Of a stretch of 64,000 bases of DNA, positions 4,055 through 61,539 are shown one piece after another. The stretch spans positions 2,205,352 to 2,269,351 of the forward strand of contig OY969418.1 of assembly GCA_963699175.1 (NCBI GenBank). Direction: 5' to 3'. Both the position numbers and the translations under genes were made by a program. The notes beneath the pieces are model-generated. The model was not told the origin of the DNA, did not search any database, and saw only the letters and a program-made list of their open reading frames with translations. Every line of letters begins with the position of its first letter. The first letter of the stretch is position 1. The DNA comes from an uncultured Acidobacteriota bacterium (GTDB lineage Bacteria > Acidobacteriota > Blastocatellia > RBC074).

Positions 4055-4188
4055 GCGTGACATGGCTGAGCGCAGCCGCTCTATGCTCAGCCATGTCACG
4101 GCCACAATGGAGTGAGTAGGGGCAGACCTATGTGTCTGCCCCAATTGGTTGCGCACGAACTGGGGCAGACACGTAGGTCTGCCCCTAC
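4055..4188. terminator. pair of GC-rich palindromes between convergent genes (likely bidirectional terminator)
   Basis: gtgacatggctgagc/gctcagccatgtcac (4058-4100). A 27-bp inverted repeat gtaggggcagacctatgtgtctgcccc / ggggcagacacgtaggtctgcccctac (4117-4188); each arm is itself palindromic. Confidence 0.4.
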
Positions 4189-4230: not shown

Positions 4231-7200
4231 TTAAATGTACTTGGCCAAGACCGCCCGCACGGCCTCCGGGTCGTAAAACTCCTTCACCAACTCTTCCGCG
4301 CGGTAGCCGAGCAACTGGCCCGGCGCGGTGTAGCCGAGGTAGCGCATGCCTTCGGGGCTGCCATCGAAGCGCCCATCCGGCAACAGATCAAGCCACGCGC
4401 CGGGGCCGAAGCTGTAGCGATACAGGAAAGTCTCGCCCCGTTCATAATCCCAGAACTGCAAGCGTCCGGCAGCGCCCGCCGCGACCAGATATTTGCCGTT
4501 TGGCGCAAAAGCGACAGCTTCCACTGACCCCAGATTTCCTGCGAGCGTGCACAGCAGCTTCCCGTCGCACACCTGCCAGAGCCTGACCTTTGCATCAGCA
4601 CTGCCCGAGGCCAGCGTCAAGCCATCGGGCGCAAAGACGACCGAACTCACCTCGTGGGAGTGCCCGACGATTTCGCGCAGCAGCTTGCCGTCGCGCACCT
4701 GCCAGAGCCTGACCTTTTTGTCAGCACTGCCTGATGCCAGCGTCAAGCCATCGGGCGCAAAGGCGACCAACTTCACTGGTAAGGAGTGGCCGGTGAGTTC
4801 GCGCAGCAGCGAGCCATTGCGTACTTGCCAGAGTTTGACCGAGTTGTCATCACTGCTCGAAGCGAGTGTCGCACCATCGGGCGCAAAGGCGACCGCCCTT
4901 ACCCCAGAAGAGTGGCCGGTGAGTTCGCGCAGCAGCTTGCCGTCGCGTACTTGCCAGAGTTTGACCGAGTTGTCATCACTGCTCGAAGCGAGTGTCGCAC
5001 CATCGGGCGCAAAGGCGACCGCCCTTACCCCAGAAGAGTGGCCGGTGAGTTTGCGCAGCAGCTTGCCATCGCGCACCTGCCAGAGCTTGACCGAGCCGTC
5101 ACCACCGCCCGAAGCGAGCGTCGCGCCATCGGGCGCAAAGGCGACCGCATTCACCCTGCCGGAGTGGCTCGCGAGTTCGCGCAACAGCGTGCCATCGCGC
5201 ACCTGCCAGAGCTTGACCGAGCCGTCACCACCGCCCGAAGCGAGCGTCGCGCCATTGGGTGCAAAGGCGACCGCATTCACCCTCCCGGAGTGGCCCCCGA
5301 GTTCGCGCAACAGCGTGCCATCGCGCACCTGCCAGAGCTTGACCGAGCCGTCACCACCGCTCGAAGCGAGCGTCGCACCATCGGGCGCAAAGGCAACTAC
5401 AGTCACCCAATCTAAGTGACCCGCGAGTTCGCGCAGCATCGCGCCATCGCGCACCTGCCAGAGCTTGACCGAGCCGTCATCATCGCCCGAAGCGAGCGTC
5501 GCACCATCGGGCGCAAAGGCAACCGCCCTTACCCAATCTGAGTGGCCCGCAAGTTCGTGCAGCAGCGCGCCATTGCGTACTTGCCAGAGCTTGACCGAGT
5601 TGTCATCACTGCTCGAAGCGAGTGTCGCACCATCGGGCGCAAAGGCGACCGCCCTTACCCCAGAAGAGTGGCCGGTGAGTTTGCGCAGCAGCTTGCCATC
5701 GCGCACCTGCCAGAGCTTGACCGAGCCGTCACCACCGCCCGAAGCGAGCGTCGCGCCATTGGGTGCAAAGGCGACCGCATTCACCCTGCCGGAGTGGCCC
5801 CCGAGTTCGCGCAACAGCGTGCCATCGCGCACCTGCCAGAGCTTGACCGAGCCGTCACCACCGCCCGAAGCGAGCGTCGCGCCATCGGGCGCAAAGGCGA
5901 CCGCATTGGCTGCTTCACCGCCGCCCAACACTTGCAACAACATCCCATCGCTTGCGCGGTAAAGTCGAATCATTCCTTCTCTGTCACATTCGGCCAATAG
6001 TTTGCCATCGCTGCTGTAGGCTAAAGCGAGAATGGAACCTGTCGCACCCAGTTGGACAACCGGGCGCATTTCGCGAGTATCAATGGTGAAGAAGGGCCAA
6101 CCCGTCACCCCTATGAGCACAGCTTGGCGATAATCAGCCCCTGCCAGCCGGGCATTTTCCGTATTGGCTTCAGTTAGGTTGGCTGAGCGCAAATCAGCGC
6201 GGTCGAGCACGGCGTGGCCGAGCTTCGCTTTGGTCAAGTCCGCTCCGGCCAAGTTGGCTTCGGTCAAATCCACACTTTCCAGCACGGCTTCCTGCAATTG
6301 CGCGCCCGCCAATTGCGCACCCGGCGGAACGCGCCCAGCCAGGGCTTGCCGCAACTTTTCGACAGCGCCAATCTCTTCTTCCATCCCGGCGCGGATGCGG
6401 GCGCTCCAATACAGAATTTGCAGCGCGTTTTCCGACACGTTGGCTTGATAAGCTGCGCGCAAAATCTCTTGCAGCGGTTCGCGCAACGCATCCTGCTCAT
6501 CCAGCAGCGCCAGGAAATAGATGGTCTTCTGATCGTAGCGCCGCGTGTTCAGCATCTCGCGCAAGCCGACGGGATCGGCCAAACAATCCTGCAAACGGCG
6601 GGCGAGGAAAAATTCGCCGAACGAGCGGTGCATAAACGTGAAGTTGCCCGCATTGTCGCGTTTGAGGAAACTGGCGCTCTGCAATTCGACGGCGATGTCC
6701 GCCGCCTCTTCATCGCCAAGCTCAAGGCGTTGGTCGGCCACCAGCCGTTCGATAAAGGGGCAGAGTTCTTTGAAATGCGCCGCCTGCGTCGCATCGCGCC
6801 ACATCCGCCAGCCGAGTTCCAGCATCAAGGCCAGCCGCGTCTGTTTCCCCAAGCTGAGTTTGCGCCCCTTGCTGTCTTCACGGTCAATCCAGATGTTGGT
6901 GTAGACGTTGTAAAGATTGGCGGCATTGACCTGCTGCCCGGCTTTTAGACGCGGCAAGGATTTGACGATCATATCCAGCAACAGCGGGCGCGTGGCCAGG
7001 TCTTTCAGATTGTAGATGGCTTGAATCTTCTGCCAATCTTTTGCGTGGTCTTGCGGGCGGGCTTTCTTCAGATAATCCTTGATTTGATCGTCATTGAATT
7101 CCTGCAAATAGACGACCTCGGCGCTCGAACGCTGCCGCAAATCGCGGTAAAGCTCGGTCTCTGTTTCGGAAAGAGTCGGGCCTTCGCCGATGACTTTGAC

Positions 7201-8622
7201 CTGTTCGGTGCGATCTTTGAAATAATGCGTGCGACAGGTGATGACGATCTTGCCGCGCGCTTCGGCCAGGCGGCTCAACTGGCGGAAATTATCCTGCGTC
7301 ACATCCCAACGCACGCGGTCGGCCATCTCGTCAAAGGCATCGAAGAGCAACACGACCTTGCCCAGCCGCACCAGATGCTCGAAGCGCGGGAAGCTGATGT
7401 CGCGCAAGCCGCGCAATTGAAAGTGGCGGCTGACGACACTTTCCAGCGTCTCTTCCTTGCGCACATCCTTGAGCGGAATCAACACCGGCGCGGGATGGCG
7501 CAACGGGTCATCGTGAAAACTGCGCGCCAGTTGGTAAGCCAGAAAACTCGCCAGCGTCGTCTTGCCCGTGCCCAAATCGCCGAGGATGACCATCTGATTA
7601 CGACGCTCATCGCCCAACCATTTGCCGACGTGCGTCAAGGCGGGCAGCTTTTCGTAAACAATGTCGGTCACCAGATCAGGCCGAATAAACCAGTCGTCAC
7701 CCTGCCATTTGGTCTTGGCCTCTTCTTCATAGTCCGCGACCAGCCCGTCAACATAGCTGTCTAGCGGCACCAACTCGCGCAACAGTTCAGCGTAGGTGAT
7801 GCAATGCACGCCCGCCGCTTCCAACGCTGTGCGCGTCTCGGCGGCAAAGCCCTGCGCCGAGACGGCCACGGTGCGGAAGGCAGGCAGCTTCTGTTGCGTC
7901 ATCAACCGTTGCGCCAGAATCTGGTCGCGTTCCTTCGCTGTAATCTGCTTGTCTTTGCATTCGACGATGGCGCTGGTGGGCAGGCCGCCGACCTTCTGTT
8001 CAATCGTCAAATCAATCTGCATCCCGCTCAGATTGCTGTCCTGTTTGGCATCGAAGCCGAGCAGCCGGTAAAGCGTCGCCACTTCGTCTTCAAAGCGTTT
8101 GCCCGCCGCGTAATTCTGTCGGCCACGCGCCGCCGGATCGAGTTTGTGTTCGCGGAACTCGAACTCTTCGCGCTCGCGGAATTGGAAGCCGTGGCGCGGC
8201 AGGTCTAGGGCTTCGACCAGTTGGCGCAGGCGCAAGTCGAAATCATCGTCGTTGCGGAAATCAATATGCAGGATGCCGCGCAAGGTCGGCTCGACCGCGC
8301 AGTCTTCGAGCAGCAGCGGAATCAGCGGGCGTTCTTTCGAGAGAATGTCAGCGGAGTGTTGCGCGAAAGCTTCGGCGCGCGTCCATTCTTTCTTGACGCC
8401 GAAGTAGCTGCGGCTGAAGACGGCGACCAGCTTGCGCGCTTGTTTCAAACCTTCGTTGATGCGTTCCAGCAGATTGTCGCCGGGTCGCAATTCCCACCGG
8501 TCGAACCACACGCGCACGCCTTCGTCGCGCAAGCGCGTGGCCAGCCGCTCGCACCAATCCCCATCCTCGCGCGCGTGACTGAGGAACGCATCGTAGGGTT
8601 TGTCGTTCTCGTTCTGAGCCAT
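4231..8622 (-). CDS. NLR-like STAND protein: TIR, PD-(D/E)xK (Mrr-like) nuclease, NACHT P-loop NTPase, pentapeptide repeats, ~14 WD40 repeats
   Basis: AGGAGG RBS 7 nt upstream. N-terminal YDAFLSHAREDGDW...FSRSYFGVKKEWTRAE; the W-x3-E matches the TIR catalytic-glutamate motif. GMQIDLTIEQKV...IVECKDK has a D...E-x-K spacing. Walker A VILGDLGTGKTT and Walker B VVLLFDAFDEM. AQLAGAQLQEAVLESVDLTEANLAGADLTKAKL pentapeptide repeats. 42-aa WD40 units (SVKLWQVRDG...HSxxVxAVAFAPDGATLASGGGDG) repeated about 14 times. Confidence 0.85.
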   Translation of the reverse strand: MAQNENDKPYDAFLSHAREDGDWCERLATRLRDEGVRVWFDRWELRPGDNLLERINEGLKQARKLVAVFSRSYFGVKKEWTRAEAFAQHSADILSKERPLIPLLLEDCAVEPTLRGILHIDFRNDDDFDLRLRQLVEALDLPRHGFQFREREEFEFREHKLDPAARGRQNYAAGKRFEDEVATLYRLLGFDAKQDSNLSGMQIDLTIEQKVGGLPTSAIVECKDKQITAKERDQILAQRLMTQQKLPAFRTVAVSAQGFAAETRTALEAAGVHCITYAELLRELVPLDSYVDGLVADYEEEAKTKWQGDDWFIRPDLVTDIVYEKLPALTHVGKWLGDERRNQMVILGDLGTGKTTLASFLAYQLARSFHDDPLRHPAPVLIPLKDVRKEETLESVVSRHFQLRGLRDISFPRFEHLVRLGKVVLLFDAFDEMADRVRWDVTQDNFRQLSRLAEARGKIVITCRTHYFKDRTEQVKVIGEGPTLSETETELYRDLRQRSSAEVVYLQEFNDDQIKDYLKKARPQDHAKDWQKIQAIYNLKDLATRPLLLDMIVKSLPRLKAGQQVNAANLYNVYTNIWIDREDSKGRKLSLGKQTRLALMLELGWRMWRDATQAAHFKELCPFIERLVADQRLELGDEEAADIAVELQSASFLKRDNAGNFTFMHRSFGEFFLARRLQDCLADPVGLREMLNTRRYDQKTIYFLALLDEQDALREPLQEILRAAYQANVSENALQILYWSARIRAGMEEEIGAVEKLRQALAGRVPPGAQLAGAQLQEAVLESVDLTEANLAGADLTKAKLGHAVLDRADLRSANLTEANTENARLAGADYRQAVLIGVTGWPFFTIDTREMRPVVQLGATGSILALAYSSDGKLLAECDREGMIRLYRASDGMLLQVLGGGEAANAVAFAPDGATLASGGGDGSVKLWQVRDGTLLRELGGHSGRVNAVAFAPNGATLASGGGDGSVKLWQVRDGKLLRKLTGHSSGVRAVAFAPDGATLASSSDDNSVKLWQVRNGALLHELAGHSDWVRAVAFAPDGATLASGDDDGSVKLWQVRDGAMLRELAGHLDWVTVVAFAPDGATLASSGGDGSVKLWQVRDGTLLRELGGHSGRVNAVAFAPNGATLASGGGDGSVKLWQVRDGTLLRELASHSGRVNAVAFAPDGATLASGGGDGSVKLWQVRDGKLLRKLTGHSSGVRAVAFAPDGATLASSSDDNSVKLWQVRDGKLLRELTGHSSGVRAVAFAPDGATLASSSDDNSVKLWQVRNGSLLRELTGHSLPVKLVAFAPDGLTLASGSADKKVRLWQVRDGKLLREIVGHSHEVSSVVFAPDGLTLASGSADAKVRLWQVCDGKLLCTLAGNLGSVEAVAFAPNGKYLVAAGAAGRLQFWDYERGETFLYRYSFGPGAWLDLLPDGRFDGSPEGMRYLGYTAPGQLLGYRAEELVKEFYDPEAVRAVLAKYI
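4490..5900 (-). repeat. tandem 126-bp near-identical coding repeats (WD40 blades) inside the NLR-like gene
   Basis: Blocks such as 4862-4990, 4988-5116 and 5620-5750 are almost identical at the nucleotide level. Antisense and out-of-frame ORFs in the track (4493..5419, 4786..5415, 5465..5962, 5542..6000) are artefacts of this periodicity. Confidence 0.8.
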
Positions 8623-8703
8623 CGGCGCGCCTCCTGAGTCGGGTTAAAGCAGTACTGCCGAGGGCTGCAAATTATCATCAAGTGCGTGGGATGGGAAGCC
8701 CAA

Positions 8704-8880
8704 AGCCTGGGTACGCACGCTTCCAGCGTGCCAAGCTCTGGGTGAGACGGAAGGCAAGAGCAAGAACCACTCGGCTCGCTTGATTGATTGGCAGATCGAA
8801 GTGGGGGATAAGTTGATCGCGTTACCCTGATGCGCTCGCCTTCCCAAACGGGGCACGCTGGAAGCGTGCGTACCCAGGCT
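8704..8880. repeat. 29-bp perfect inverted repeat flanking a ~119-bp spacer (palindromic element, family Y)
   Basis: agcctgggtacgcacgcttccagcgtgcc (8704-8732) and its exact reverse complement (8852-8880). The right arm overlaps the stop of the upstream gene. The core AGCCTGGG..GCGCACGC recurs at 19366. Confidence 0.5.
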
Positions 8881-9316
8881 AAGGTTTACGTGGCACGCTC
8901 TTCGGTTTGTTAGTCTCTTCGGGTTTGGCGGGCGAAGTCTCTTTAGGCTTTTCAGCCTTTTGCACCGCCGCCAAGCGTTCCGTCAACCGGTCAACTTCTT
9001 TCTGCATGTCCAACATCTGCTTTTGCAAATGGACTATCTGTTGCCCGTGGTCGAATAGTTGGCGCTGCAATTCGAGCACTCGCTCTTGGCTGTAATTGCT
9101 TGTGCTGCCCGTGTTGAGCGACTGGTTCTGCTGCGAGCGCTCGACGTAATCAAGTCTCGTTTGCATCTGATCTACGCGGCGTTCCAGGTTCATCAAGCGA
9201 AAGCTTTGATCCTGGCCAAAGCGCGTGGCCGCACCCAACGATAGCAGACTCAAACACAACAAACCCGTGAGCGCCGTGCGCCAATTACGTTTGATGGGAA
9301 ATCTCATTGCTCTCAA
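8879..9316 (-). CDS. secreted coiled-coil protein, hypothetical
   Basis: Signal-peptide-like N-terminus MRAMRFPIKRNWRTALTGLLCLSLLSLGAA. Heptad-rich, Q/E/L-rich middle. Lys/Pro-rich tail. Confidence 0.45.
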   Translation of the reverse strand: MRAMRFPIKRNWRTALTGLLCLSLLSLGAATRFGQDQSFRLMNLERRVDQMQTRLDYVERSQQNQSLNTGSTSNYSQERVLELQRQLFDHGQQIVHLQKQMLDMQKEVDRLTERLAAVQKAEKPKETSPAKPEETNKPKSVPRKP

Positions 9317-9488
9317 CCTCCATTGCTGTCATCAGCGTGCTTTACTGAAACCAATTTGTTAGTCTTCTGCGTCTACTGAACGTGACAGTTCTGGCACAAC
9401 TGGTTTCCGAATTGCAAGCCCTAGCAATCTGCCGTTTGCGACGGGAGACATCAAAGCAGGAATGCACGCCTGCGACTAAATCGAATTG

Positions 9489-9575
9489 GTGCGGTACAGG
9501 GAGCGGTAGCGACCTGCTGGATTCGTGAGGTGCACGCTCCCGCAGTACCAGGTCGCTACCGCTCCCGTACCGCAC
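9489..9575. repeat. palindromic intergenic element, family X copy 1
   Basis: gtgcggtacagggagcggtagcgacctg ... caggtcgctaccgctcccgtaccgcac; ~28-bp arms with a 32-nt loop. Confidence 0.6.
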
Positions 9576-9597
9576 CTGCTTCCTACAGAGGACTTCG

Positions 9598-12466
9598 TTT
9601 GAAGAAATTAGCGGCTCGCTTTTGGAGCGTAATTTTACTCATAGTCTTTAGCTCCGCGGCAATTGCCGCACAATCAAGCGAGATTTTACGCGGGCAGATC
9701 GTTGATGAGCTGAGCGACGTTATTCCCGGTGCGCAGCTCACGCTGACGGCAACCGGCGGCAAGCAACTCACTGCCGTCAGCGATGCCAACGGCGAATTCA
9801 CGCTACTACACGTCGCGCCCGGCGTTTACACACTGACCGTCACCGCCGAAGGCTTTCAGCCCTACAATGAACGCGAACTGCGTTTACCGCCCAAACCGCC
9901 GCTGCTCAAACTCACGCTGAAAGTCGCCGCCGTCAACATCGAAACCGAAGTCAAAGCCGATGAACCGGGCGTTTCCGTCGAGCCGGATCAGAACATGGAT
10001 GCGATTGTGTTAGGCGAAGACTTCATCGAGACCCTGCCTGACAATGAAGATGATCTGCGCGAATACTTGCTGATGCTGGCTGGCCCCGGCGCGGCTGGCG
10101 CGGCGGGCGGACAGGGCGGCGCGCAGATTTACATCAACGGTTTTCGCGGCGGACGCTTGCCGCCGCGCGAAGCCATCCTGCAAGTACGCATCAACCAAAG
10201 CCCCTTCTCCGCCGAATTCGAGCGTCCCGGCGCGGGCCGCGTAGAAATCATCACCAAGCCGGGCAACAACGAATGGCACGGCGGCTTCGGCGCGAACTTC
10301 CGCAACTCGGCGCTCGACGCGCGCAACGCGTTTGCGGCGGTCAAACCTGAGTTGGAGCAGAAGCGTTATTCGTTCAACCTGAGCGGCCCGCTGATTCGCA
10401 AGCGCATGTCGTTCTTCGCCAACCTGGAACAACGCCACTTGATCGGCAGCGGGACGGTGCGCGCTGAAACGCTCAGCGGGCCGTTCGTCGCCAACGTGGC
10501 CGCGCCCAACGAGAGCGCCTATTTCAGCGCGCGCGCTGATTATCTGCTCAATCAGAAGAACACTATCAACCTGACCTACTCGCGCTCTTCGTCCGAAGCG
10601 CTAAACCGCGAATTCGCCGCGCGGCTCGCTAGCGGCGGGACGAGCAACTTCACCTTGCCCGAACGCGCTTCGAGTTCCGACGATGTGAATCACACGTTGC
10701 AACTGGCCGAGACCTGGCTCATCAGCGCGCGGCTGATTCACGAGTCGCGCTTGCGCTTGCAATACGACGAGCGTCATCTGCGCGCCAATACACAGGGCTA
10801 CGCGGTCAACGTACTCGATGCGTTTTACGGTGGCGGCGCAACCTGTTGTCCCAACAACTCGCGCCAATTCACAGCAGAGTGGCAGGACTATCTGACTTAC
10901 ACGCGCAAGCGGCAGACCCTGCGCGGCGGCGTGCAGGTCGAGTACAACCGGCAGAACGATTTCAGCGCGAGCAATTTCAACGGTACTTACACCTTCTCCA
11001 GTCTCGATCAATATCGCCGCGCATTGACTGACCCGCAAGCGCGCGCCACTCAGTTCACGCAGAGCCTGGGCAATCCGCGTTTGCGCTACGACCTTTATCA
11101 AGCCGCGTGGTTTGTGCAAGACGACGTGCGTTTGCGGCAAGGCCTGACGCTCTCGTTCGGCTTGCGCCACGAATTCCAGTCGCATTTGGAAGACAAGCTG
11201 AATTTCGCGCCGCGCTTCGGCGTGGCTTGGTCGCCCTTCAAAGATCGCAAGACGACTTTGCGCGTGGGCGCGGGGATTTTCTACGCGCGGCTGACGGGCG
11301 GAGTTTATAACACCACGCTGCGCTACAACGGCATAACGCAACAGAGCATCATCATTCCCACGCCGCTCTTCCCCGATCCCTTCGCTGGCAATCCGAACAT
11401 CCGGCAAAGCAGCGCCATCCGCTGGCTGCTTGCGCCGGAGTTGCAAGCGCCCTACGTCATCAATTTCAACGGAACGGTCGAGCGGCAATTGACGCGCTCA
11501 GTGGTCACGACCTTTGGCTACCACTTCACGCGCGGCGTACATCAATTTCGCGCGCGCAACATCAACGCGCCGCTGCTTGATGGCGTGCGCCCTGATCCAA
11601 CGCAAGGCAATCTCTTTCAGATCGAATCTTCCGCCGCCTCGCAATATCACGGCCTGCAATTCCGGCTGGATCGTCGCCTGGGGCGTAGCTTCACAGCTTT
11701 CGGTAGCTATGCGCTGGCGTGGACGCAGAGCGATGCCGACGGCCCAACGTTCTTTCCGGCGAACAGCTACAATCTGCGTGATGAATGGAGCCGCGCGTTG
11801 ATTGATCGGCGGCACAATCTCTACATCGGCGGCAGTCTGCGTTTGCCCTACGGCTGGCGTGTTGCGCCGACTGTTAATGCATATTCCGGCACGCCGTTCA
11901 ATATAACGACAGGGCGCGACGAGAACGGCGATTCGCGCCTCAACGACCGCTTTGTCGGCGTCGGGCGCAATGCTGATTTGCTGGCGAGCCTTTATCCGAG
12001 TTTGCCTGATCGCTGTCTGCTCAATTGCAGCGCGGGCAGTCAACCAATCAATCTCCGCGATTTTCTCATTGCCAATTTCCCGAACGGCGTGCGTGCCGAA
12101 GGGCCGGGTTACTTCAGCGCCAATCTGAGCGTCACTAAAACCATTGGCTTTGGCCACCGCAAAGCGAACACGACCGCAGCCAGGCCGGGCGCGACAAATG
12201 CCAAAAGCGCCGAGAAGCTCAACGCAAAGAGTGCAGGATTGAACGGTCAGAGCAAGCCCGGCAAAGTTGGTGGTCAGGCCAACGCGCCGAATAACAACAG
12301 CGAAGCACCGCGTTTCAACTTGCAACTCGGCGCACAGATCACCAATCTTTTCAACCGCGTCAACTTCGGACAATACAGCGGCGTGCTGACCTCGCCGTTT
12401 TTCGCGCGGGCGAACAGCGCCAGCACAGCGCGCCAGTTTGAGTTTACGTTGCGTTTCGGTTTTTGA
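9598..12466 (+). CDS. TonB-dependent outer-membrane receptor with N-terminal carboxypeptidase-regulatory-like domain
   Basis: The start probably lies downstream of the track start, at TTG 9598 (LKKLAARFWSVILLIVFSSAAIAAQ signal peptide, AGAGGA RBS). The track start at 9530 lies inside the palindromic element. CarboxypepD_reg-like ILRGQIVDELSDVIPGAQLTLTATGG...GEFTL. ~950-aa beta-barrel ending ...FEFTLRFGF. Confidence 0.8.
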
Positions 12467-18483: not shown

Positions 18484-19305
18484 TCACAAGCGGCGCAGAT
18501 AGGCTTCGGGGTTATTCAGGAAACGCCGCGTCAAATCCACGTGTTCAACTTCGTCGTAAGCGACCTCGCGCACTGGATGCTGATCGAAGCTCAAGATCGC
18601 CGCGCCGGGAAAAGCCATCAACAACGGCGAATGCGTAGCAATGATGAACTGCGCGTCTTCTTCCACCATCTCTTTCAACATCGAGAGCAGCGCCAATTGC
18701 CGTTGCGGCGAAAGCGGCGCTTCCGGTTCGTCGAGCAGATACAAGCCGCCCGGCACGAAGCGCGATTGAAAGAGCTTCAGAAAGCTCTCGCCATGTGAAT
18801 TGGCGTCGAGGTCTTCGCCGTAGCGTTCGATCAAGGCTTGCCGCTGACTGAGAACTGCACCTTTGGCCAAGCCCAGCGCATAGCCGGTGTACTCTTGCTC
18901 AAAATTGTCGGCCATCTCCTGCAACTCTTCGGTCATGCGTTTCAAGCGCCGCGCAAAATTGAAGAAGTCTTCGGCGCGCAGAAAGAAGCCGCGCGTAGTT
19001 CTGTGTTGCCAGACGAATTGCATCAAGCGGGACAACGCCCGCGCGTGTTGCAACGTGTTATCGCGCGGCAGATCATCGCCGCCTACCGCCACGGAGCCGA
19101 CACCTACAGCCAACGCTTCGAGCAAGGTGGATTTGCCTGAACCGTTTTCACCGACCAGGAATGTAACGGACGAGTGAAACTCGATCGGTGCGAACTGCTG
19201 TACGAGCGGCAAGCTGAATGGAAAGTCCTGTCGCCGTTGCGCGGAAGGTTTGAGCCGGATAGCTTGCAAATGAATCATCGTCGTATCGGTGATTTGTCTT
19301 GTCAT
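18484..19305 (-). CDS. AAA/ABC-like P-loop ATPase (COG3910-like predicted ATPase)
   Basis: Walker [18 protein letters not shown]. Walker B/D-loop [20 protein letters not shown]. Confidence 0.7.
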
Positions 19306-57181: not shown

Positions 57182-58453
57182 ATGAAAGAAATAACCGGGT
57201 ATGTGAGCTACGATAAGAGGCGCAACAGTTGGTGCGGCCGAGTCTCCTTGACTGACCCCGACACCGGCAAAAGGAAGTGGTTCAAGCGCTACGGCAGCAC
57301 CAAGACTGAAGCCCGGCAGCGGGTCAGAGATCTGATCACAAGGTTTGAAAAGGGCGGCGTGCAATCCGTTACCGCTGACCGCCACTCCTTCGCTTACCTG
57401 GCTCAGAAGTTCAAAAAGGAAAAGCTGATCCCTGCCGTTTACCTGGGCGAAAGAAAGATCGCCGGTCGGCGCACCCTCTCCCCGCCCCTAGCCTGGCTGA
57501 ACCAGTTGAGGCTCTTCTTTGACGAGTACAAGCTGACGGAGATTACCGCAGGCGAGGTGCGTAAGTTCAAAGTCTGGCTCTCGAAGATCCCCTCGCGCAG
57601 CCAGATCAAAGAGGAGGACGGCGTGCTGAAACTAATCGTCAAAGAAGACGGCGAGCAGCGTGGCATTGACTCGGTCAACCGGCCCATCGAATTGCTGCGC
57701 ACCATGCTGAATTACGCAGTGGAGGAAAATCTGCTGCGGCCAGAGAACAATCTATTCCTGGCGATGCGCGGCCGTAAGCTGATCGATAGGGCTGCTGAGG
57801 GGAAACGGGAGCGCTTTCCAACCTTCGGCGAGGAACTGGCCCTACTCAAGTTTTGCAACATTGAGGGGCAACTCGGCAACGCTCACCTGCGCCCGATCTT
57901 GATAGTCGCAGCGGATACTGGATTGCGTCGCAATGAGCTACTTACACTCATAGATACTGACCTGGATTTTGGCCGCGAGATTATTCGCCTGCGCGCGTTC
58001 AACGCGAAGACCAACCGGCCGCGCCAAATACCGATGACGCCGCGCGTGAAGCTGGAACTGCAGAAGATGGTGGAAAAGAATAGGGCAGGTCTCGTCTTCG
58101 GCGGGATCAAAAACGTAAAGCGCTCTTATGCTACGGCCTGCCGCAAGTGCGGGATTGAAGACCTGAACCGTCATGACTTCCGGCATGGTTTTGTTAGCCG
58201 GGCGATCCTCGCTGGCATCCCGCCCGCTGTGGCGCTCTCGGCCAGCGGTCACGCCAGCGACGAATGGAAACGCTATCTGAATATGACACCGGATCAGTTG
58301 CAGTACCTGCTTGAGCCGCTGGACGGGCAGGACGCGCAGGAAGTCCAGGTTTATGCGGAAGAGGTTATGCGCGGCCTGCGGGAGGCGCTTAAGTACGATC
58401 AAGTGGAGAGACTCTTTGTGACGCCGCAAACTGGACGCGAGCGGCATGGGTAA
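57182..58453 (+). CDS. tyrosine-type site-specific recombinase / phage integrase
   Basis: GAGGAAG RBS. C-terminal catalytic region with LRRNELLTL..., HDFRHGFVSRAI and the terminal tyrosine region GHASDEWKRYLNM (R-H-R-Y set). Confidence 0.85.
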   Translation: MKEITGYVSYDKRRNSWCGRVSLTDPDTGKRKWFKRYGSTKTEARQRVRDLITRFEKGGVQSVTADRHSFAYLAQKFKKEKLIPAVYLGERKIAGRRTLSPPLAWLNQLRLFFDEYKLTEITAGEVRKFKVWLSKIPSRSQIKEEDGVLKLIVKEDGEQRGIDSVNRPIELLRTMLNYAVEENLLRPENNLFLAMRGRKLIDRAAEGKRERFPTFGEELALLKFCNIEGQLGNAHLRPILIVAADTGLRRNELLTLIDTDLDFGREIIRLRAFNAKTNRPRQIPMTPRVKLELQKMVEKNRAGLVFGGIKNVKRSYATACRKCGIEDLNRHDFRHGFVSRAILAGIPPAVALSASGHASDEWKRYLNMTPDQLQYLLEPLDGQDAQEVQVYAEEVMRGLREALKYDQVERLFVTPQTGRERHG

Positions 58454-58599
58454 AGTCTGGCTAGCCAAAACTGGCAGCTTAAGGCGGAGTACAGCCCTAG
58501 TGTTATAATCTGCGCCAGCCGCGGGCAATACGAGCCGAACGCACTCGATTGATAAAGCACGTTCGGTGCATCCACTTGTTTGTGAAGAGAGGTGAAGTG

Positions 58600-58854
58600 A
58601 TGACGACTGTTTCCGTAGAATTGCCGGAGAGTGTTTTTTCAGCCCTGCGACGTGCACCAGAAGATTTCGTGCGCGAAATGCGGATTGCCGCCGCAGTCAA
58701 ATGGTATGAGCTAGGGCAACTGTCGCAAGGCAAAGCGGCTGAAGTGGCTGGCTTAACGCGCGCCGAGTTTATCAACACACTCTCGCGTTATCAGGTTTCC
58801 CCATTCCAATATACGGCAGAAGAATTAGCGGAGGATTTAGCACGTGCCGAGTGA
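58600..58854 (+). CDS. UPF0175-family antitoxin
   Basis: Start MTTVSVELPESVF... (AGAGGTGA RBS). ...KWYELGQLSQGKAAEVAGLTRAEFINTLSRYQVSPFQYTAEELAEDL matches the UPF0175 consensus. Confidence 0.65.
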   Translation: MTTVSVELPESVFSALRRAPEDFVREMRIAAAVKWYELGQLSQGKAAEVAGLTRAEFINTLSRYQVSPFQYTAEELAEDLARAE

Positions 58855-59047
58855 CCGGGCCGTCCTCAACACCTCACCCCTAATCACCCTCTGCAAAAGC
58901 GGGCAGGAGTATCTGCTTCCGCGATTGTTCGCTGAAATCGTCGTACCCGACGCAGTCTGGGATGAAGTGCTGGCGGGTAGTGAGGTGCGTATTCGCACGC
59001 AACGTGAACACCGATTCGCAGCCAACGTGAACACCAATTCGCATTGA
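58844..59047 (+). pseudogene. PIN-like (DUF3368-type) toxin gene truncated after ~47 codons by an IS21 insertion
   Basis: 4-nt overlap with the antitoxin stop. N-terminus VLNTSPLITLCKSGQEYLLPRLFAEIVVPDAVWDEVLAGSE matches the partner family. The reading then runs into the IS21 terminal repeats. Confidence 0.55.
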
Positions 59048-59220
59048 TCGTGAACGCCGATTCGCACGTCGTGAACACCGATTGGCAAGCCAGTGAACAC
59101 GGATTCGCACGATCGTGAACGCGGGTGTCGGGCGTGCGCCGCCCGCGCGGAGTGTGCTGGAAATCATTTAGACAGTGCTGGACGCTGTCCTCCTATTTTC
59201 TTCAAGGAGGACTCGCTGCA

Positions 59221-60762
59221 ATGCCAGCACCAAAGATTTCCATGCCACGACTCACTGAACTTTTACGTCTCCACGCCGCCGGGCTTTCACAACGTCAGAT
59301 CGCCCAAAGCCTCGACCTCTCGGTCGGCGTCGTCAACAAATATCTCCAACTCGCCCAAGCGCGCGGCCTCGGCTGGCCACTGCCGGCCGAACTGACTGAA
59401 GCGGCCTTGTGGCAACTGCTGGAAGGCGCGACTACGGCGGCCACCAGCACGCCACTCGCCGCACCTGATTTCTCCCTCATCCATCGCGAACTGCAACGCA
59501 AGGGCGTCACGCGCCTCTTACTCTGGGAAGAGTATGTGGCGGTCTATCCCGACCGGCATTACAGCTATGCACAGTTCTGCCGCCTCTACCGCGAATGGCG
59601 CGCTGGGGTCAAGCCCACCTTACGTCAGACGCAGCACGCCGGCGAAAAGCTCTTTGTGGATTACGCCGGGCAGACCGTGCCGATCGTAGACACGCTGACG
59701 GGCGCAGTCTGGCAAGCCCAAATCTTTGTGGCCGTCTTGGGCGCCTCCAATTACACCTACGCCGAAGCGACCGCCACGCAACGGCTGCACGATTGGGTCG
59801 GCGCACACGCGCGGGCCTTCGCCTTCTTCGGCGGCGTGCCGCAATTAGTCGTGCCGGACAATCTCAAGAGCGCCGTGCGCAAAGCCTGCCGTTACGAGCC
59901 GTTGCTCAATCGCACCTATCAAGAGTTGCTGGCCCACTACAACACCGCCGCTTTGCCAGCTCGCCCCTACAAACCGCGCGATAAGGCTAAAGCCGAAGTC
60001 GGCGTGCAGGTCGTCGAGCGTTGGCTCTTGGCACGATTGCGCCAGCAGACTTTCTTCTCGCTCGCCGAACTCAATCAAGCGTTGCGGCACCTGCTCACCC
60101 GACTCAATGACCGGCCTTTCAAAAAGCTGCCGGGCTCGCGCCGCTTTCAGTACGAAGCCCTTGATCGTCCCGCCTTGCGCCCCTTGCCAGCGCAGCCTTT
60201 CGTCTACGCCGAGTGGAAGAAGGCGCGCGTGCACATTGACTATCACGTGGAAGTCGAAGGCCCTTACTACAGCGTGCCGCACGCGCTGATCCGGCGCGAA
60301 ATCGAGCTGCGCCTCACGGCCACCACGGTCGAATGCTTGTATCAAGGTGAGCGCGTCGCCGCGCATCCACGCTCCGACCGCAAAGGCGCGCACACCACTA
60401 ACCCGGAACACATGCCCAAGTCACATCGCGCCCATCTGGAATGGACGCCAGGCCGCTTCCTCAATTGGGCACTGGAGATCGGTCCGCAAACGCGCGATCT
60501 GGTGCAGCACTTACTGACCAATCGCCCACACCCCGAGATGGGGTTTCGCTCCTGTTTGGGCTTGCTCTCGTTGGCCAAAAACTATGGCAAGCGGCGGCTG
60601 GAAGCGGCTTGTACGCGCGCCCTTGCGCTCGGCTCACCGACGCGCCGTAGCGTCGTCTCGATCCTGGAGAAGGGGCTGGAAAACCAACCGCTGCCGGAAA
60701 GCACGCTCGAATTGCCCGCGCCGCGTCACGCCAATTTACGCGGCGCGGACTACTACTATTAA
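59221..60762 (+). CDS. istA: IS21 family transposase IstA
   Basis: Start [31 protein letters not shown] (HTH) after an AAGGAGGA RBS. DDE integrase-core-like centre (...LFVDYAG...). Confidence 0.85.
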
Positions 60763-60786
60763 CCCATCACACGAAGGAGACCTTGG

Positions 60787-61539
60787 ATGCTCAATCAACA
60801 AACACTCACGCGCCTGCGCGCACTCAAACTCTTCGGGCTGGCTGAGGCCTTGGCCCAACAACTGGAACAACCGCCCACGCAAGCGCTCGCCTTTGAAGAG
60901 CGTCTGGCGCTGTTGGTCGAACGCGAAGTCAGCTATCGTGATAACCGCCGGCTACAATGCCTCTTGCGAGCCGCTAAGCTCAGACAGCCCGCTTGCGTAG
61001 AAGACATTGACTATCGCCACCAGCGCGGGCTTGAACGTACGCTGGTAGCCACGCTCACGAGTTGCGACTGGATTCGCGCCCACCACAATCTGCACATTAC
61101 GGGTCCAACGGGGACGGGCAAGAGTTGGCTAGCTTGCGCCTTCGGTAATCAAGCTTGCCGCCAAGGCTTGAGCGTCCGCTATGAACGCACAGGCCGTCTA
61201 CTCGACCAATTACGCGTGGCACGTGGCGACGGCAGTTACCCAAAACTTTTGCGCCAACTGGCGCGGGTAGAGTTACTGATCCTGGATGACTTCGGGCTCA
61301 AACCGCTCACGCAGACTGAGCGCCACGACTTATTGGAAGTGATTGAAGACCGGCACGGTGTGCACTCGACCCTGCTGACGAGTCAATTACCGATCCGTGC
61401 TTGGCACGAATATCTGAACGAACCGACCGTCGCCGACGCCCTGCTGGATCGGCTGCTCAATGGCGCGCATCGGCTCGAATTAACTGGCGATTCAATGCGC
61501 CAGAAAGAAGCCTTGACCAAAGTGAAGGCAAAGCAGTAG
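60787..61539 (+). CDS. istB: IS21 family helper ATPase IstB
   Basis: Walker [23 protein letters not shown]. Walker B LLILDDFG. 250 aa. Confidence 0.9.

Follow-up and report, generated by a model that had tools for sequence, protein, structure and literature searches.

A single-chain NLR-related protein of an acidobacterium that combines TIR, restriction-type nuclease, NACHT, pentapeptide and WD40 modules

A 64,000-nt stretch of contig OY969418.1 from an uncultured Acidobacteriota bacterium (the window) encodes a 1463-residue protein of the bacterial NLR type, in which a TIR domain, a restriction-type nuclease domain, a NACHT switch, a pentapeptide repeat and a WD40 array follow one another in one chain (Table 1). 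Judging from the sequence, we consider it probable (roughly 0.6) that this is a single-chain, NACHT-clade NLR-related protein with the clade 11 layout, whose two N-terminal enzymes would be fired by sensor-driven oligomerisation. An earlier note on this DNA had assigned these domains and named their key motifs, and independent sequence and fold evidence bears out both. The domain searches that it proposed as a check recovered TIR (Pfam TIR_2 scores 107.8 bits over aa 13-136, where 28 is the cut-off) as well as NACHT (PF05729, 29.5 bits against 26.7, a small margin), and the sensor, switch and effector logic that it put forward would be the natural reading of the verified domains.

Table 1. Features of the gene and its product, in window coordinates
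Feature	Residues (aa)	Position	Strand	Basis or remark
Complete CDS	1463 aa + stop	4231..8622	-	starts at first ATG
Shine-Dalgarno AGGAGG		8630..8635	-	7 nt before ATG at 8622; read from sequence
TIR domain	10-140	8203..8595	-	Pfam TIR_2, PDB alignment, Foldseek
Catalytic Glu codon	Glu84	8371-8373	-	aligned with WxxxE Glu of AbTir/PdTIR
Flexible charged linker, TIR/REase	~141-171	8110..8202	-	AF2 pLDDT 45-62
Mrr-type PD-(D/E)xK restriction-endonuclease-fold (REase) domain	172-285	7768..8109	-
REase catalytic codons	D204; E221; K223	8011-8013; 7960-7962; 7954-7956	-
NACHT module NBD-HD1-WHD-HD2	315-762	6337..7680	-	Pfam, Foldseek
Walker A GDLGTGKT	348-356 (GDLGTGKTT)	7558-7581	-
Walker B VVLLFDAFDE	423-433 (VVLLFDAFDEM)	7327-7353	-
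WHD motif FMHRSFGEFF	His665	6607-6636	-
Pentapeptide-repeat beta-helix	763-842	6097..6336	-	spacer between NACHT and propellers
13 WD40 units x 42 aa	858-1403	4414..6051	-	Pfam, TRF, unit table
Degenerate 14th blade + conserved C-terminal cap	1404-1463	4234..4413	-

The NACHT switch and the gene that encodes it

The exact protein is present in a public collection as a singleton at 90% clustering, encoded on a 9.54-Mb contig, and its family is unnamed in the databases, carrying just the label 'TIR domain-containing protein'. Residues 1-860 were modelled with AF2 at a pLDDT of 87.9. The palindrome-rich DNA and the secreted coiled-coil gene described earlier as flanks are both there, the former as nested hairpins at 4056-4188 and the latter as a small ORF with a signal peptide at 8879-9316. 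In an Rfam search of the flanks the palindromes gave sub-threshold miRNA-hairpin matches only, and a scan for promoters and terminators returned nothing above shuffled expectation.

Relatives score 27-49 bits for NACHT, and nSTAND3, at 26.0 bits, falls just under its own cut-off in the window protein. The Walker A and B residues are invariant among 65-72 relatives, R464 is essentially so, and His665, which by motif resemblance we take to be the counterpart of NLRC4 H443, is retained in 44 of 47. Foldseek places NLRC4 (2e-13), NOD2, NAIP and the NLRPs as the best PDB matches, with Avs4, Avs3 and Dark ranking lower. An Apaf-1/NB-ARC (AP-ATPase) identity, as in the WD40 proteins of that class, was rejected: the protein has no NB-ARC match in Pfam, and Dark (8y6q) reaches 9e-5 vs 2e-13 for NLRC4. 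The Pfam score, the Walker motifs, the NLR-like fold and the winged-helix histidine are together those of a NACHT-clade STAND NTPase, the class to which the protein had been assigned.

Two candidate effector domains

The TIR domain is most similar to AbTir and PdTIR (phmmer against PDB, 1e-11 and 1e-13). Its KKEWTRAE segment pairs with KKDWTNYE of AbTir and KKEWPQKE of PdTIR, and Glu84 falls on the WxxxE glutamate, where a W-x3-E catalytic residue had been claimed. Foldseek also matches the TIR domains of MyD88 and TLR1 with a TMt of ~0.8. Glu84 is kept in 49 of 57 relatives. Fold and conserved glutamate are those of the catalytic type, and we therefore predict an NADase. A ~30-residue, low-confidence linker in the AF2 model tethers this domain to the rest of the chain.

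A catalytic TIR may act in more than one way. AbTir, which with PdTIR makes up the closest group, produces a cADPR isomer, and such a messenger might activate a separately encoded effector, as in Thoeris, instead of NAD+ being depleted. We give this a very slim prospect, because neither the window nor the related loci L001-L003 hold a conserved partner gene, ThsA-like or other, and a second enzyme already lies within the same protein.

That second enzyme would be the REase domain. Mrr_cat is matched at 24.7 bits, a small margin over the threshold, the best fold matches are active nucleases, and D204, E221 and K223 are all present, so that the PD-(D/E)xK nuclease module proposed earlier is found in fold and in motif. 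The domain does not belong to Pfam NA-iREase1 (PF22722), a family marked by the absence of the catalytic residues; here the triad is intact and PF22722 gives no match even at E <= 10. In the cyanobacterial NA-iREase1 proteins the triad is lost, with RLK or ALG replacing D..ExK in two of them (L083 and L084). Intact motifs are not proof of activity.

Conservation of the triad differs between groups of relatives. The closest (identity >=55%) keep all three catalytic residues together with the helix-1 Glu, and TIR-less relatives have an intact triad in 38 of 45 cases (84%), though they are only 32-36% identical. Among TIR-bearing relatives the triad is intact in 55% and partly lost in 36 of 80, which means that nuclease activity is dispensable in the lineage.

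These figures bear on a reading in which the TIR NADase alone fires and the REase fold is a NACHT-associated structural module, serving for packing, as an oligomer interface or in DNA tethering, as is assumed for the NA-iREase of clade 11. The D..ExK motif would then be a relic, or would bind just metal or DNA. The NA-iREase1/iREase modules found at this same position are inactive by definition, in Pfam as well as in Kibby et al., and among TIR-bearing relatives the triad is degenerate in 45%, while 81% keep the TIR glutamate. The REase-NACHT junction is moreover predicted by AF2 to be a rigid unit (pLDDT >90), and in the model it resembles an integral part of the switch. Against a purely structural role, however, the window protein and its nearest kin retain the full catalytic set, the TIR-less relatives mostly do so with the REase as their only nuclease-type domain, Mrr_cat rather than NA-iREase1 is the family matched, and the top folds are those of working nucleases. 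We regard a single effector as unlikely, if still a serious contender, and prefer two. The earlier proposal of a dual effector calls for correction: conserved residues make both domains candidate enzymes, and in the described relatives this REase module is viewed as inactive.

Sensor, relatives and genomic setting

C-terminal to the switch, the pentapeptide repeat scores 50.8 bits in Pfam, is modelled by AF2 as a regular ladder of 5-residue strands (aa 770-840) and is matched to NP275 by Foldseek. The WD40 array that follows scores 445 bits, and TRF detects it as a 126-nt period in 10.7 copies. Units 2-10 are 77-98% identical in nucleotides (identity matrix), and where the units vary they do so mainly in the d-a and b-c loops, which by textbook WD40 topology lie on the top face. 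Of the pentapeptide and 14-blade sensor described before, the pentapeptide part and 13 blades are clear, and the last blade, which is degenerate, is a probable one. A conserved C-terminal stretch begins at ~aa 1386; the last 78 residues are 44-81% identical in ~40 relatives and always form the extreme C-terminus. By analogy with fungal het-e, near-identical units with loop-restricted variation could amount to a recombination-driven recognition repertoire in Acidobacteria.

Relatives occur in ~200 species-level genomes, mostly Acidobacteriota MAGs, the best at 73-77% identity; the family extends to Ca. Magnetoglobus multicellularis, Thiomargarita and Parabeggiatoa, and several MAGs carry at least two paralogues. 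Their outer N-terminus may instead be a ParA/MinD-like P-loop, a trypsin or an HTH+TIR module, and other C-terminal domains include ECF-sigma and HEAT. Such swapping of terminal modules is typical of conflict systems (PMC7159879, PMC8195603).

The gene stands alone on the chromosome amid housekeeping and polysaccharide-use genes, and its relatives likewise are solo genes, with no conserved partner in the loci surveyed (L001-L003). No defence genes are found among its neighbours in the window or in the called-gene tables of L001-L003, and in this range the earlier statement that it lies outside a defence island holds. As an operon partner the upstream coiled-coil ORF was rejected: 82 related loci were compared and none has a homologue of it nearby, and the neighbours in L001-L003 are unrelated. 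In L004, L032 and L045 the gene is preceded by a divergent sulfatase gene, as it is at a distance of two genes in the window, a weak microsynteny that probably reflects lineage rather than function. Carriage on mobile elements was rejected as well, plasmid matches reaching 23-30% identity at best and phage matches being confined to the TIR.

A solitary chromosomal setting would also suit an NLR switch outside immunity, one that would tell self from non-self or recognise kin, or would serve cell death during development or the signalling of stress, in a soil acidobacterium with a large genome; fungal HET-E/NWD allorecognition is the analogy. The paralogues, the presence of the family in the three further lineages named above, and a WD40 array with internal conservation and loop-restricted variation like that of het-e/het-d (PMC12222747) point the same way. 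TIR and REase domains, however, are typical suicide or defence effectors, the bacterial NACHT proteins that have been tested experimentally defend against phage (Kibby preprint), and a partner 'allele' locus is not evident; we hold a non-immune role to be quite improbable. It differs from our preferred explanation in its trigger, the mechanism being the same.

Known systems and the proposed mechanism

The closest described architecture is NACHT clade 11 in Table S1 of Kibby et al., given there as [variable effector(s)]+(NA-)iREase+NACHT+Pentapeptide+BetaPropeller with the REase annotated as inactive. The window protein has this architecture, and we place it there by architecture, not by tree: a REase fold comes directly before NACHT and is followed by pentapeptide and WD40, and the variable outer effectors of the clade include TIR_2. 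Two members from cyanobacterial plasmids, L083 and L084 (Acaryochloris, Calothrix), are homologues with 28-30% identity over NACHT. Unlike in clade 11, the REase here is Mrr_cat rather than NA-iREase1 and keeps D..ExK, and the TIR joins it directly, without a calcineurin-like or NNH module. Table S1 of Kibby et al. has no entry 'TIR+REase/Mrr_cat+NACHT+Pentapeptide'. The suggestion that the domain order may be undescribed thus largely fails, the core layout being already catalogued, and survives, with respect to that table, for the direct combination of TIR with a catalytically intact REase.

Other systems share parts of this design. In bNACHT25-type REase+NACHT or Mrr_cat+NACHT proteins (Kibby clade 2) an Mrr-like nuclease likewise lies immediately N-terminal to NACHT and is a demonstrated toxic effector: an H443-type mutation of bNACHT25 is toxic, and a nuclease-dead mutation abolishes the toxicity (Kibby preprint). 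These proteins lack TIR, pentapeptide repeat and WD40 sensor, however, and are only 23-26% identical. Distant REase-NACHT homologues on Rhizobium, Bosea and Azospirillum plasmids align from aa ~164-174 onward. Avs3 and Avs4 (Gao et al. 2022) also unite nuclease, STAND NTPase and repeat sensor in one chain and tetramerise upon binding a phage protein, and Avs4 is a structural match (8dgf, E 3.5e-9, Foldseek); their sensors, in contrast, are TPR-like and their STAND clade is a different one, the window protein being closer to animal NACHT NLRs. PADLOC gave no Avs match at E <= 0.1 and no bNACHT model match, and the Avs-type membership suggested earlier has to be dropped, the sensor here being WD40.

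Fungal HET-E/HET-D/NWD proteins combine NACHT with 42-aa WD40 units of high internal identity and few variable loop positions (PMC12222747, PMC4986451). They differ in having a HET-domain effector instead of TIR and REase, no pentapeptide spacer and another kingdom of origin; their role in allorecognition is established, whereas a phage role here is presumed. TIR and Mrr-type REase also share one effector polypeptide in the short-pAgo partner (PADLOC Aga_REase-TIR-PNTD1-PNTD2), in the reversed order REase-TIR and under an Argonaute/APAZ sensor rather than NACHT-WD40; the weak matches to it are confined to the TIR region. Membership in a PADLOC/NCBIfam system was rejected, the matches being TIR-only (PDC-S66, ThsB, Aga_TIR, Retron_TIR) or WD40 to HEAT-ARM_XIII, as was DS8_antiphage (20.9 bits vs a cut-off of 790). 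The tested bNACHT proteins are not known to include a member of the present subfamily.

We infer all functional steps of the following scheme, including the activity of both enzymes and a phage trigger. At rest, an ADP-bound NACHT would be kept closed, with His665 in contact with the bound nucleotide, the part that H443 plays in NLRC4. Two WD40 propellers, spaced from the switch by the pentapeptide beta-helix, would bind a protein ligand, which might come from a phage or be a host protein in a perturbed state, and nucleotide exchange would then open NACHT and drive oligomerisation. Among the clustered N-termini, flexibly tethered TIRs could pair into composite NADase sites and deplete NAD+, while the NACHT-proximal Mrr-type domains could dimerise and cleave DNA; the infected cell would arrest growth or die. 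Against this mechanism stand the non-island setting, the lack of a PADLOC system model match and the inactive annotation in clade 11, along with the bare Mrr_cat margin and the partial triad loss in TIR-bearing relatives.

Tentatively, and somewhat short of an even bet, we propose that the family has kept an ancestral, still catalytic version of the 'inactive REase' module that precedes NACHT throughout a clade of bacterial NLRs, and that the protein is a two-weapon NLR with a WD40 repertoire, triad loss elsewhere marking a passage from effector to scaffold. If so, a single round of oligomerisation would start NAD+ depletion by TIR and DNA cleavage by REase together, and the difference between 55% intact triads with TIR and 84% without would reflect replacement of the effector after TIR was acquired. 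Were both enzymes active, this would be a compact natural NLR in which one sensor leads to two chemically different death effectors, and the widespread NACHT 'inactive REase' would be explained as an effector demoted to scaffold after a new one arrived. Since His665 is conserved and offers a handle for synthetic activation, the two-effector question is directly testable. What is distinctive is the intact REase triad beside the switch and the near-identical WD40 units with loop-concentrated variation; otherwise the protein is another combination in a space that Kaur/Aravind and Kibby et al. had mapped before. With it the range of NLR-type immunity genes reaches Blastocatellia-like Acidobacteriota, part of a major soil phylum that is experimentally neglected, and among them the family is common and occurs as paralogues.

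Domain organisation and proposed mechanism

The identity and architecture of the window protein are secure. The earlier note had described a 1463-aa protein with TIR, nuclease, NACHT, pentapeptide and WD40 elements; its coordinates and length stand, its strand needs correcting to minus, and every motif it quoted is present in the translation. Because WD40 models swamped the Pfam output for the whole protein, domains were scanned segment by segment, and both TIR and NACHT were recovered above their cut-offs. Of the 14 WD40 blades proposed, 13 are clear units in a 42-aa register (aa 858-1403) and the 14th is degenerate; TRF reported a 126-nt period with 10.7 copies in the gene.

Features of the NLR gene, its protein and the surrounding window
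Feature	Position	Strand	Details
NLR ORF	4231-8622	minus	1463 aa, ATG start (ORF listing)
AGGAGG	7 nt upstream of NLR ATG		read from sequence
TIR_2	aa 13-136		Pfam 107.8 bits, cut-off 28
Mrr_cat	about aa 174-282		Pfam 24.2 bits, cut-off 21
NACHT			Pfam 29.5 bits, cut-off 26.7
Pentapeptide			Pfam 50.8 bits
WD40			Pfam 445 bits, 12 stretches
Nested palindromes	4056-4100, 4116-4188		convergent intergenic region downstream of NLR
177-bp element	8704-8880		between stop of small ORF and NLR start
Small coiled-coil ORF	8879-9316		signal peptide; neighbour
Kelch-type propeller protein; unknown membrane protein			neighbours
TonB-type OMP, sulfatase, DGOK, KDPG aldolase, rhamnosidase			neighbours
ClpB, GroEL, M16 peptidases			farther off
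AAA_21/AAA_15 ORF	18484-19305	minus	273 aa, AbiEii/OLD-type ABC ATPase-like
Tyrosine integrase	57182-58453		adjoins IS21-type transposase
IS21-type transposase	59125-60762		rve + Mu-transpos_C_2
250-aa ORF	60787-61539		after IS21-type transposase

In a phmmer search of PDB sequences, the TIR matched PdTIR (3h16, 1e-13), a bacterial TIR (7uxr) and AbTir (7uwg/8g83, 1e-11). The alignment pairs KKEWTRAE of the window protein with KKDWTNYE of AbTir and KKEWPQKE of PdTIR, bearing out the proposed catalytic glutamate; we take the Glu of this motif to be the catalytic residue (AbTir E208). The NACHT carries a Walker A (GDLGTGKTT) and a NACHT-type Walker B (LLFDAFDEM) which, together with R464, are essentially invariant across relatives. 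A winged-helix motif, FMHRSFGEFF, is also present, with His665 kept in 44 of 47 relatives, and resembles the FxHxSFQEF motif bearing NLRC4 H443 and its NLRP3 and NOD2 equivalents.

An AF2 model of aa 1-860 (74 sequences, pLDDT 87.9, pTM 0.85) gave NLRC4 (2e-13), NOD2, NAIP5 and NLRP2/3/7/9 as its best Foldseek PDB matches, with Avs4 (3.5e-9), Avs3, RPP1 and Dark ranking behind. The model contains a regular pentapeptide beta-helix (aa about 765-842), a ~30-residue low-confidence linker between TIR and REase, and a REase-NACHT junction modelled with confidence. The Avs-type class suggested earlier was dropped after the protein failed the Avs tests (PADLOC); tests for NB-ARC/Apaf-1 membership (Pfam, Foldseek) failed as well.

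The best-supported reading is a single-chain NLR that fires both TIR and REase on ligand binding. We infer its function, trigger and dual activity as follows: ligand binding by the WD40 propellers would release an ADP-locked NACHT, which would then oligomerise, clustering and activating the tethered TIR and REase. The clustered TIR would deplete NAD+ and the clustered REase would cleave DNA, ending in abortive infection or in regulated death of another kind.

Relatives, catalytic residues and a constant core

A search with aa 1-766 returned 86 proteins, of which ~73 share the Pfam set of the window protein and count as true relatives, the top ones at 72-73% identity; all are metagenome- or MAG-derived, and the most specific name that any of them bears is 'TIR domain-containing protein'. 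When one genome per species was scanned by pattern, 204 relatives emerged, closest in Blastocatellia MAGs (73-77%) and otherwise in Anaerolineae, Planctomycetota, Nitrospinia, Calditrichaceae, Verrucomicrobiota, Thiomargarita and Parabeggiatoa, with two copies in several MAGs. In 90% clustering the exact window protein stands alone, on a 9.54-Mb contig. When aa 1-300 were scanned with HMMER against 1.84 billion representatives, there were 26,021 TIR-level matches, and ~37 of the best 150 of these spanned TIR and REase in a single collinear match. Proteins in which TIR is fused directly to REase make up a small family.

In non-redundant counts, TIR-bearing proteins that keep the TIR Glu have the REase D/E/K triad intact in 41 cases and degenerate in 24; those that have lost the Glu have 3 and 12, and TIR-less relatives 38 and 7. 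That makes 84% of TIR-less proteins triad-intact versus 55% of TIR-bearing ones (Fisher p = 8e-4, a value no more than indicative, since phylogeny links the sequences). An REase that works as an effector, and can be dispensed with after a TIR has been gained, would be expected to leave this pattern; the main rival reading treats the REase as a scaffold only. Both the TIR Glu and the triad are retained in the window protein and its nearest relatives.

Second-tier relatives (32-36% identity) align only past aa ~165, being REase-NACHT proteins that lack the TIR, and begin with ParA/MinD-like P-loop domains (~300 aa) or Trypsin_2. Some TIR-bearing members have an extra ~200-aa domain or an XRE HTH ahead of the TIR (the latter in P0022), and some have HEAT repeats or an ECF-sigma-like domain instead of WD40 (in P0008 and P0010, Sigma70_r2 + Sigma70_r4_2 after the pentapeptide repeat). 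Both ends are thus exchanged around a constant REase-NACHT-(pentapeptide) core. In ~40 relatives the final 78 residues are conserved as a terminal cap.

Two gene arrangements were seen among relatives. In the subclade with the extra ~200-aa N-terminal domain (P0024 and its like), locus L003 has a 434-aa gene (8697-10001 of that locus; AAA_16 match faint) whose end coincides exactly with the NLR gene start, which points to a two-gene operon confined to that subclade. At L037, L039 and L040 (MAG loci from Blastocatellia and elsewhere), members of a divergent subclade of long proteins (1570-1580 aa), TIR-REase(degenerate)-NACHT-Pp-WD40, are immediately followed by a sensorless REase(degenerate)-NACHT paralogue of 620-670 aa, a pairing reminiscent of sensor/helper NLRs; at L039 and L040 the paralogue's reading frame starts right behind the stop codon of the first ORF, in the same frame.

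Comparison with catalogued NACHT proteins and the WD40 array

All components of the window protein are included among the bacterial NACHT architectures of Kibby et al. Their clade 11 (Table S1) is NA-iREase1/iREase+NACHT+Pentapeptide+BetaPropeller with variable outer effectors, for example CASPASE+iREase+NACHT+Pentapeptide+WD40, SIR2_2+iREase+... and TIR+NACHT+Pentapeptide_4+BetaPropeller. By its architecture the window protein belongs with clade 11 and would work like its members, although its REase, unlike that of the clade, looks catalytically competent. The suggestion that the domain order may be undescribed is largely mistaken: the clade 11 layout is catalogued, but Table S1 has no TIR+REase/Mrr_cat+NACHT+Pentapeptide entry. 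The unannotated TIR-NACHT gap in its two TIR+NACHT entries is big enough to hide a REase.

Cyanobacterial plasmid homologues from Acaryochloris (L083) and Calothrix (L084) are NNH5+NA-iREase1+NACHT in Pfam (119 and 158 bits) and, on alignment, lack the D204 and E221 equivalents, with RLK or ALG where the window protein has ECK. The window REase segment has no NA-iREase1 match in Pfam even at E <= 10, and membership of that family was rejected. The window protein is of an already catalogued kind, its intact REase and HET-E-like repeats being modestly novel.

WD40 units 2-10 are 77-98% identical at the nucleotide level (pairs 3/8, 98%; 9/10, 97%; 3/7 and 4/10, 95%), and amino-acid differences cluster at unit positions 4, 5, 7, 8, 21-23, 25, 36, 40 and 42. 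In the WD40 topology, positions 4-8 (after GH) form the d-a loop and 21-25 (the SxxDxS turn) the b-c loop, on the top face; the variable positions within these two stretches would therefore lie on top-face loops. Repeats of 'high internal conservation' that contain hypervariable sites are likewise described for the fungal het-e/het-d genes (PMC12222747; PMC4986451). Short-read assemblies of such arrays are unreliable (PMC12222747), and the window repeat count is for that reason taken with caution; the 9.5-Mb contig suggests a high-quality assembly. Homologue lengths span 1070 to 1625 aa, a spread that either genuine differences in repeat number or collapsed assembly may explain. G+C is 0.64-0.65 over the array (4500-6000) versus 0.57-0.59 in the rest of the gene and flanks, consistent with Gly/Ala-rich repeat composition, not foreign origin.

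Genomic setting

As first noted, the gene lies outside any obvious defence island: its neighbours are non-defence genes, including acidobacterial-type TonB/CarboxypepD_reg outer-membrane proteins, and in three relatives, also on long contigs, the gene again stands by itself amid unrelated housekeeping genes. With those outer-membrane proteins, its sulfatase and rhamnosidase, and the closest relatives of its NLR in Blastocatellia MAGs, the window probably comes from a Blastocatellia-like acidobacterium. No defence island or conserved partner was found at these four loci, the coiled-coil ORF was found beside none of the relatives' loci, and a search for a close homologue on a plasmid or phage found none. 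The only defence-flavoured neighbour, the AAA_21/AAA_15 ORF, is 10 kb from the NLR with sugar-catabolism genes between. The integrase/IS21-type mobile element (57182-61539) lies ~50 kb from the NLR gene; by position, its 250-aa ORF could be the IS21 helper ATPase.

At its ends the 177-bp element carries AGCCTGGGTACGCACGCTTCCAGCGTGCC and the reverse complement of this sequence, a perfect 29-nt inverted repeat with 119 nt between the arms, each of which also holds a hairpin of its own. The element looks MITE-like; no second copy was found in the window, and no Rfam family matched. One of the downstream palindromes has a 16-bp stem and a 13-nt loop; in the other, an inverted repeat of 34 nt with 91% complementarity, each arm holds a GGGGCAGAC...GTCTGCCCC hairpin. 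Both may act as bidirectional terminators or be REP-like elements.
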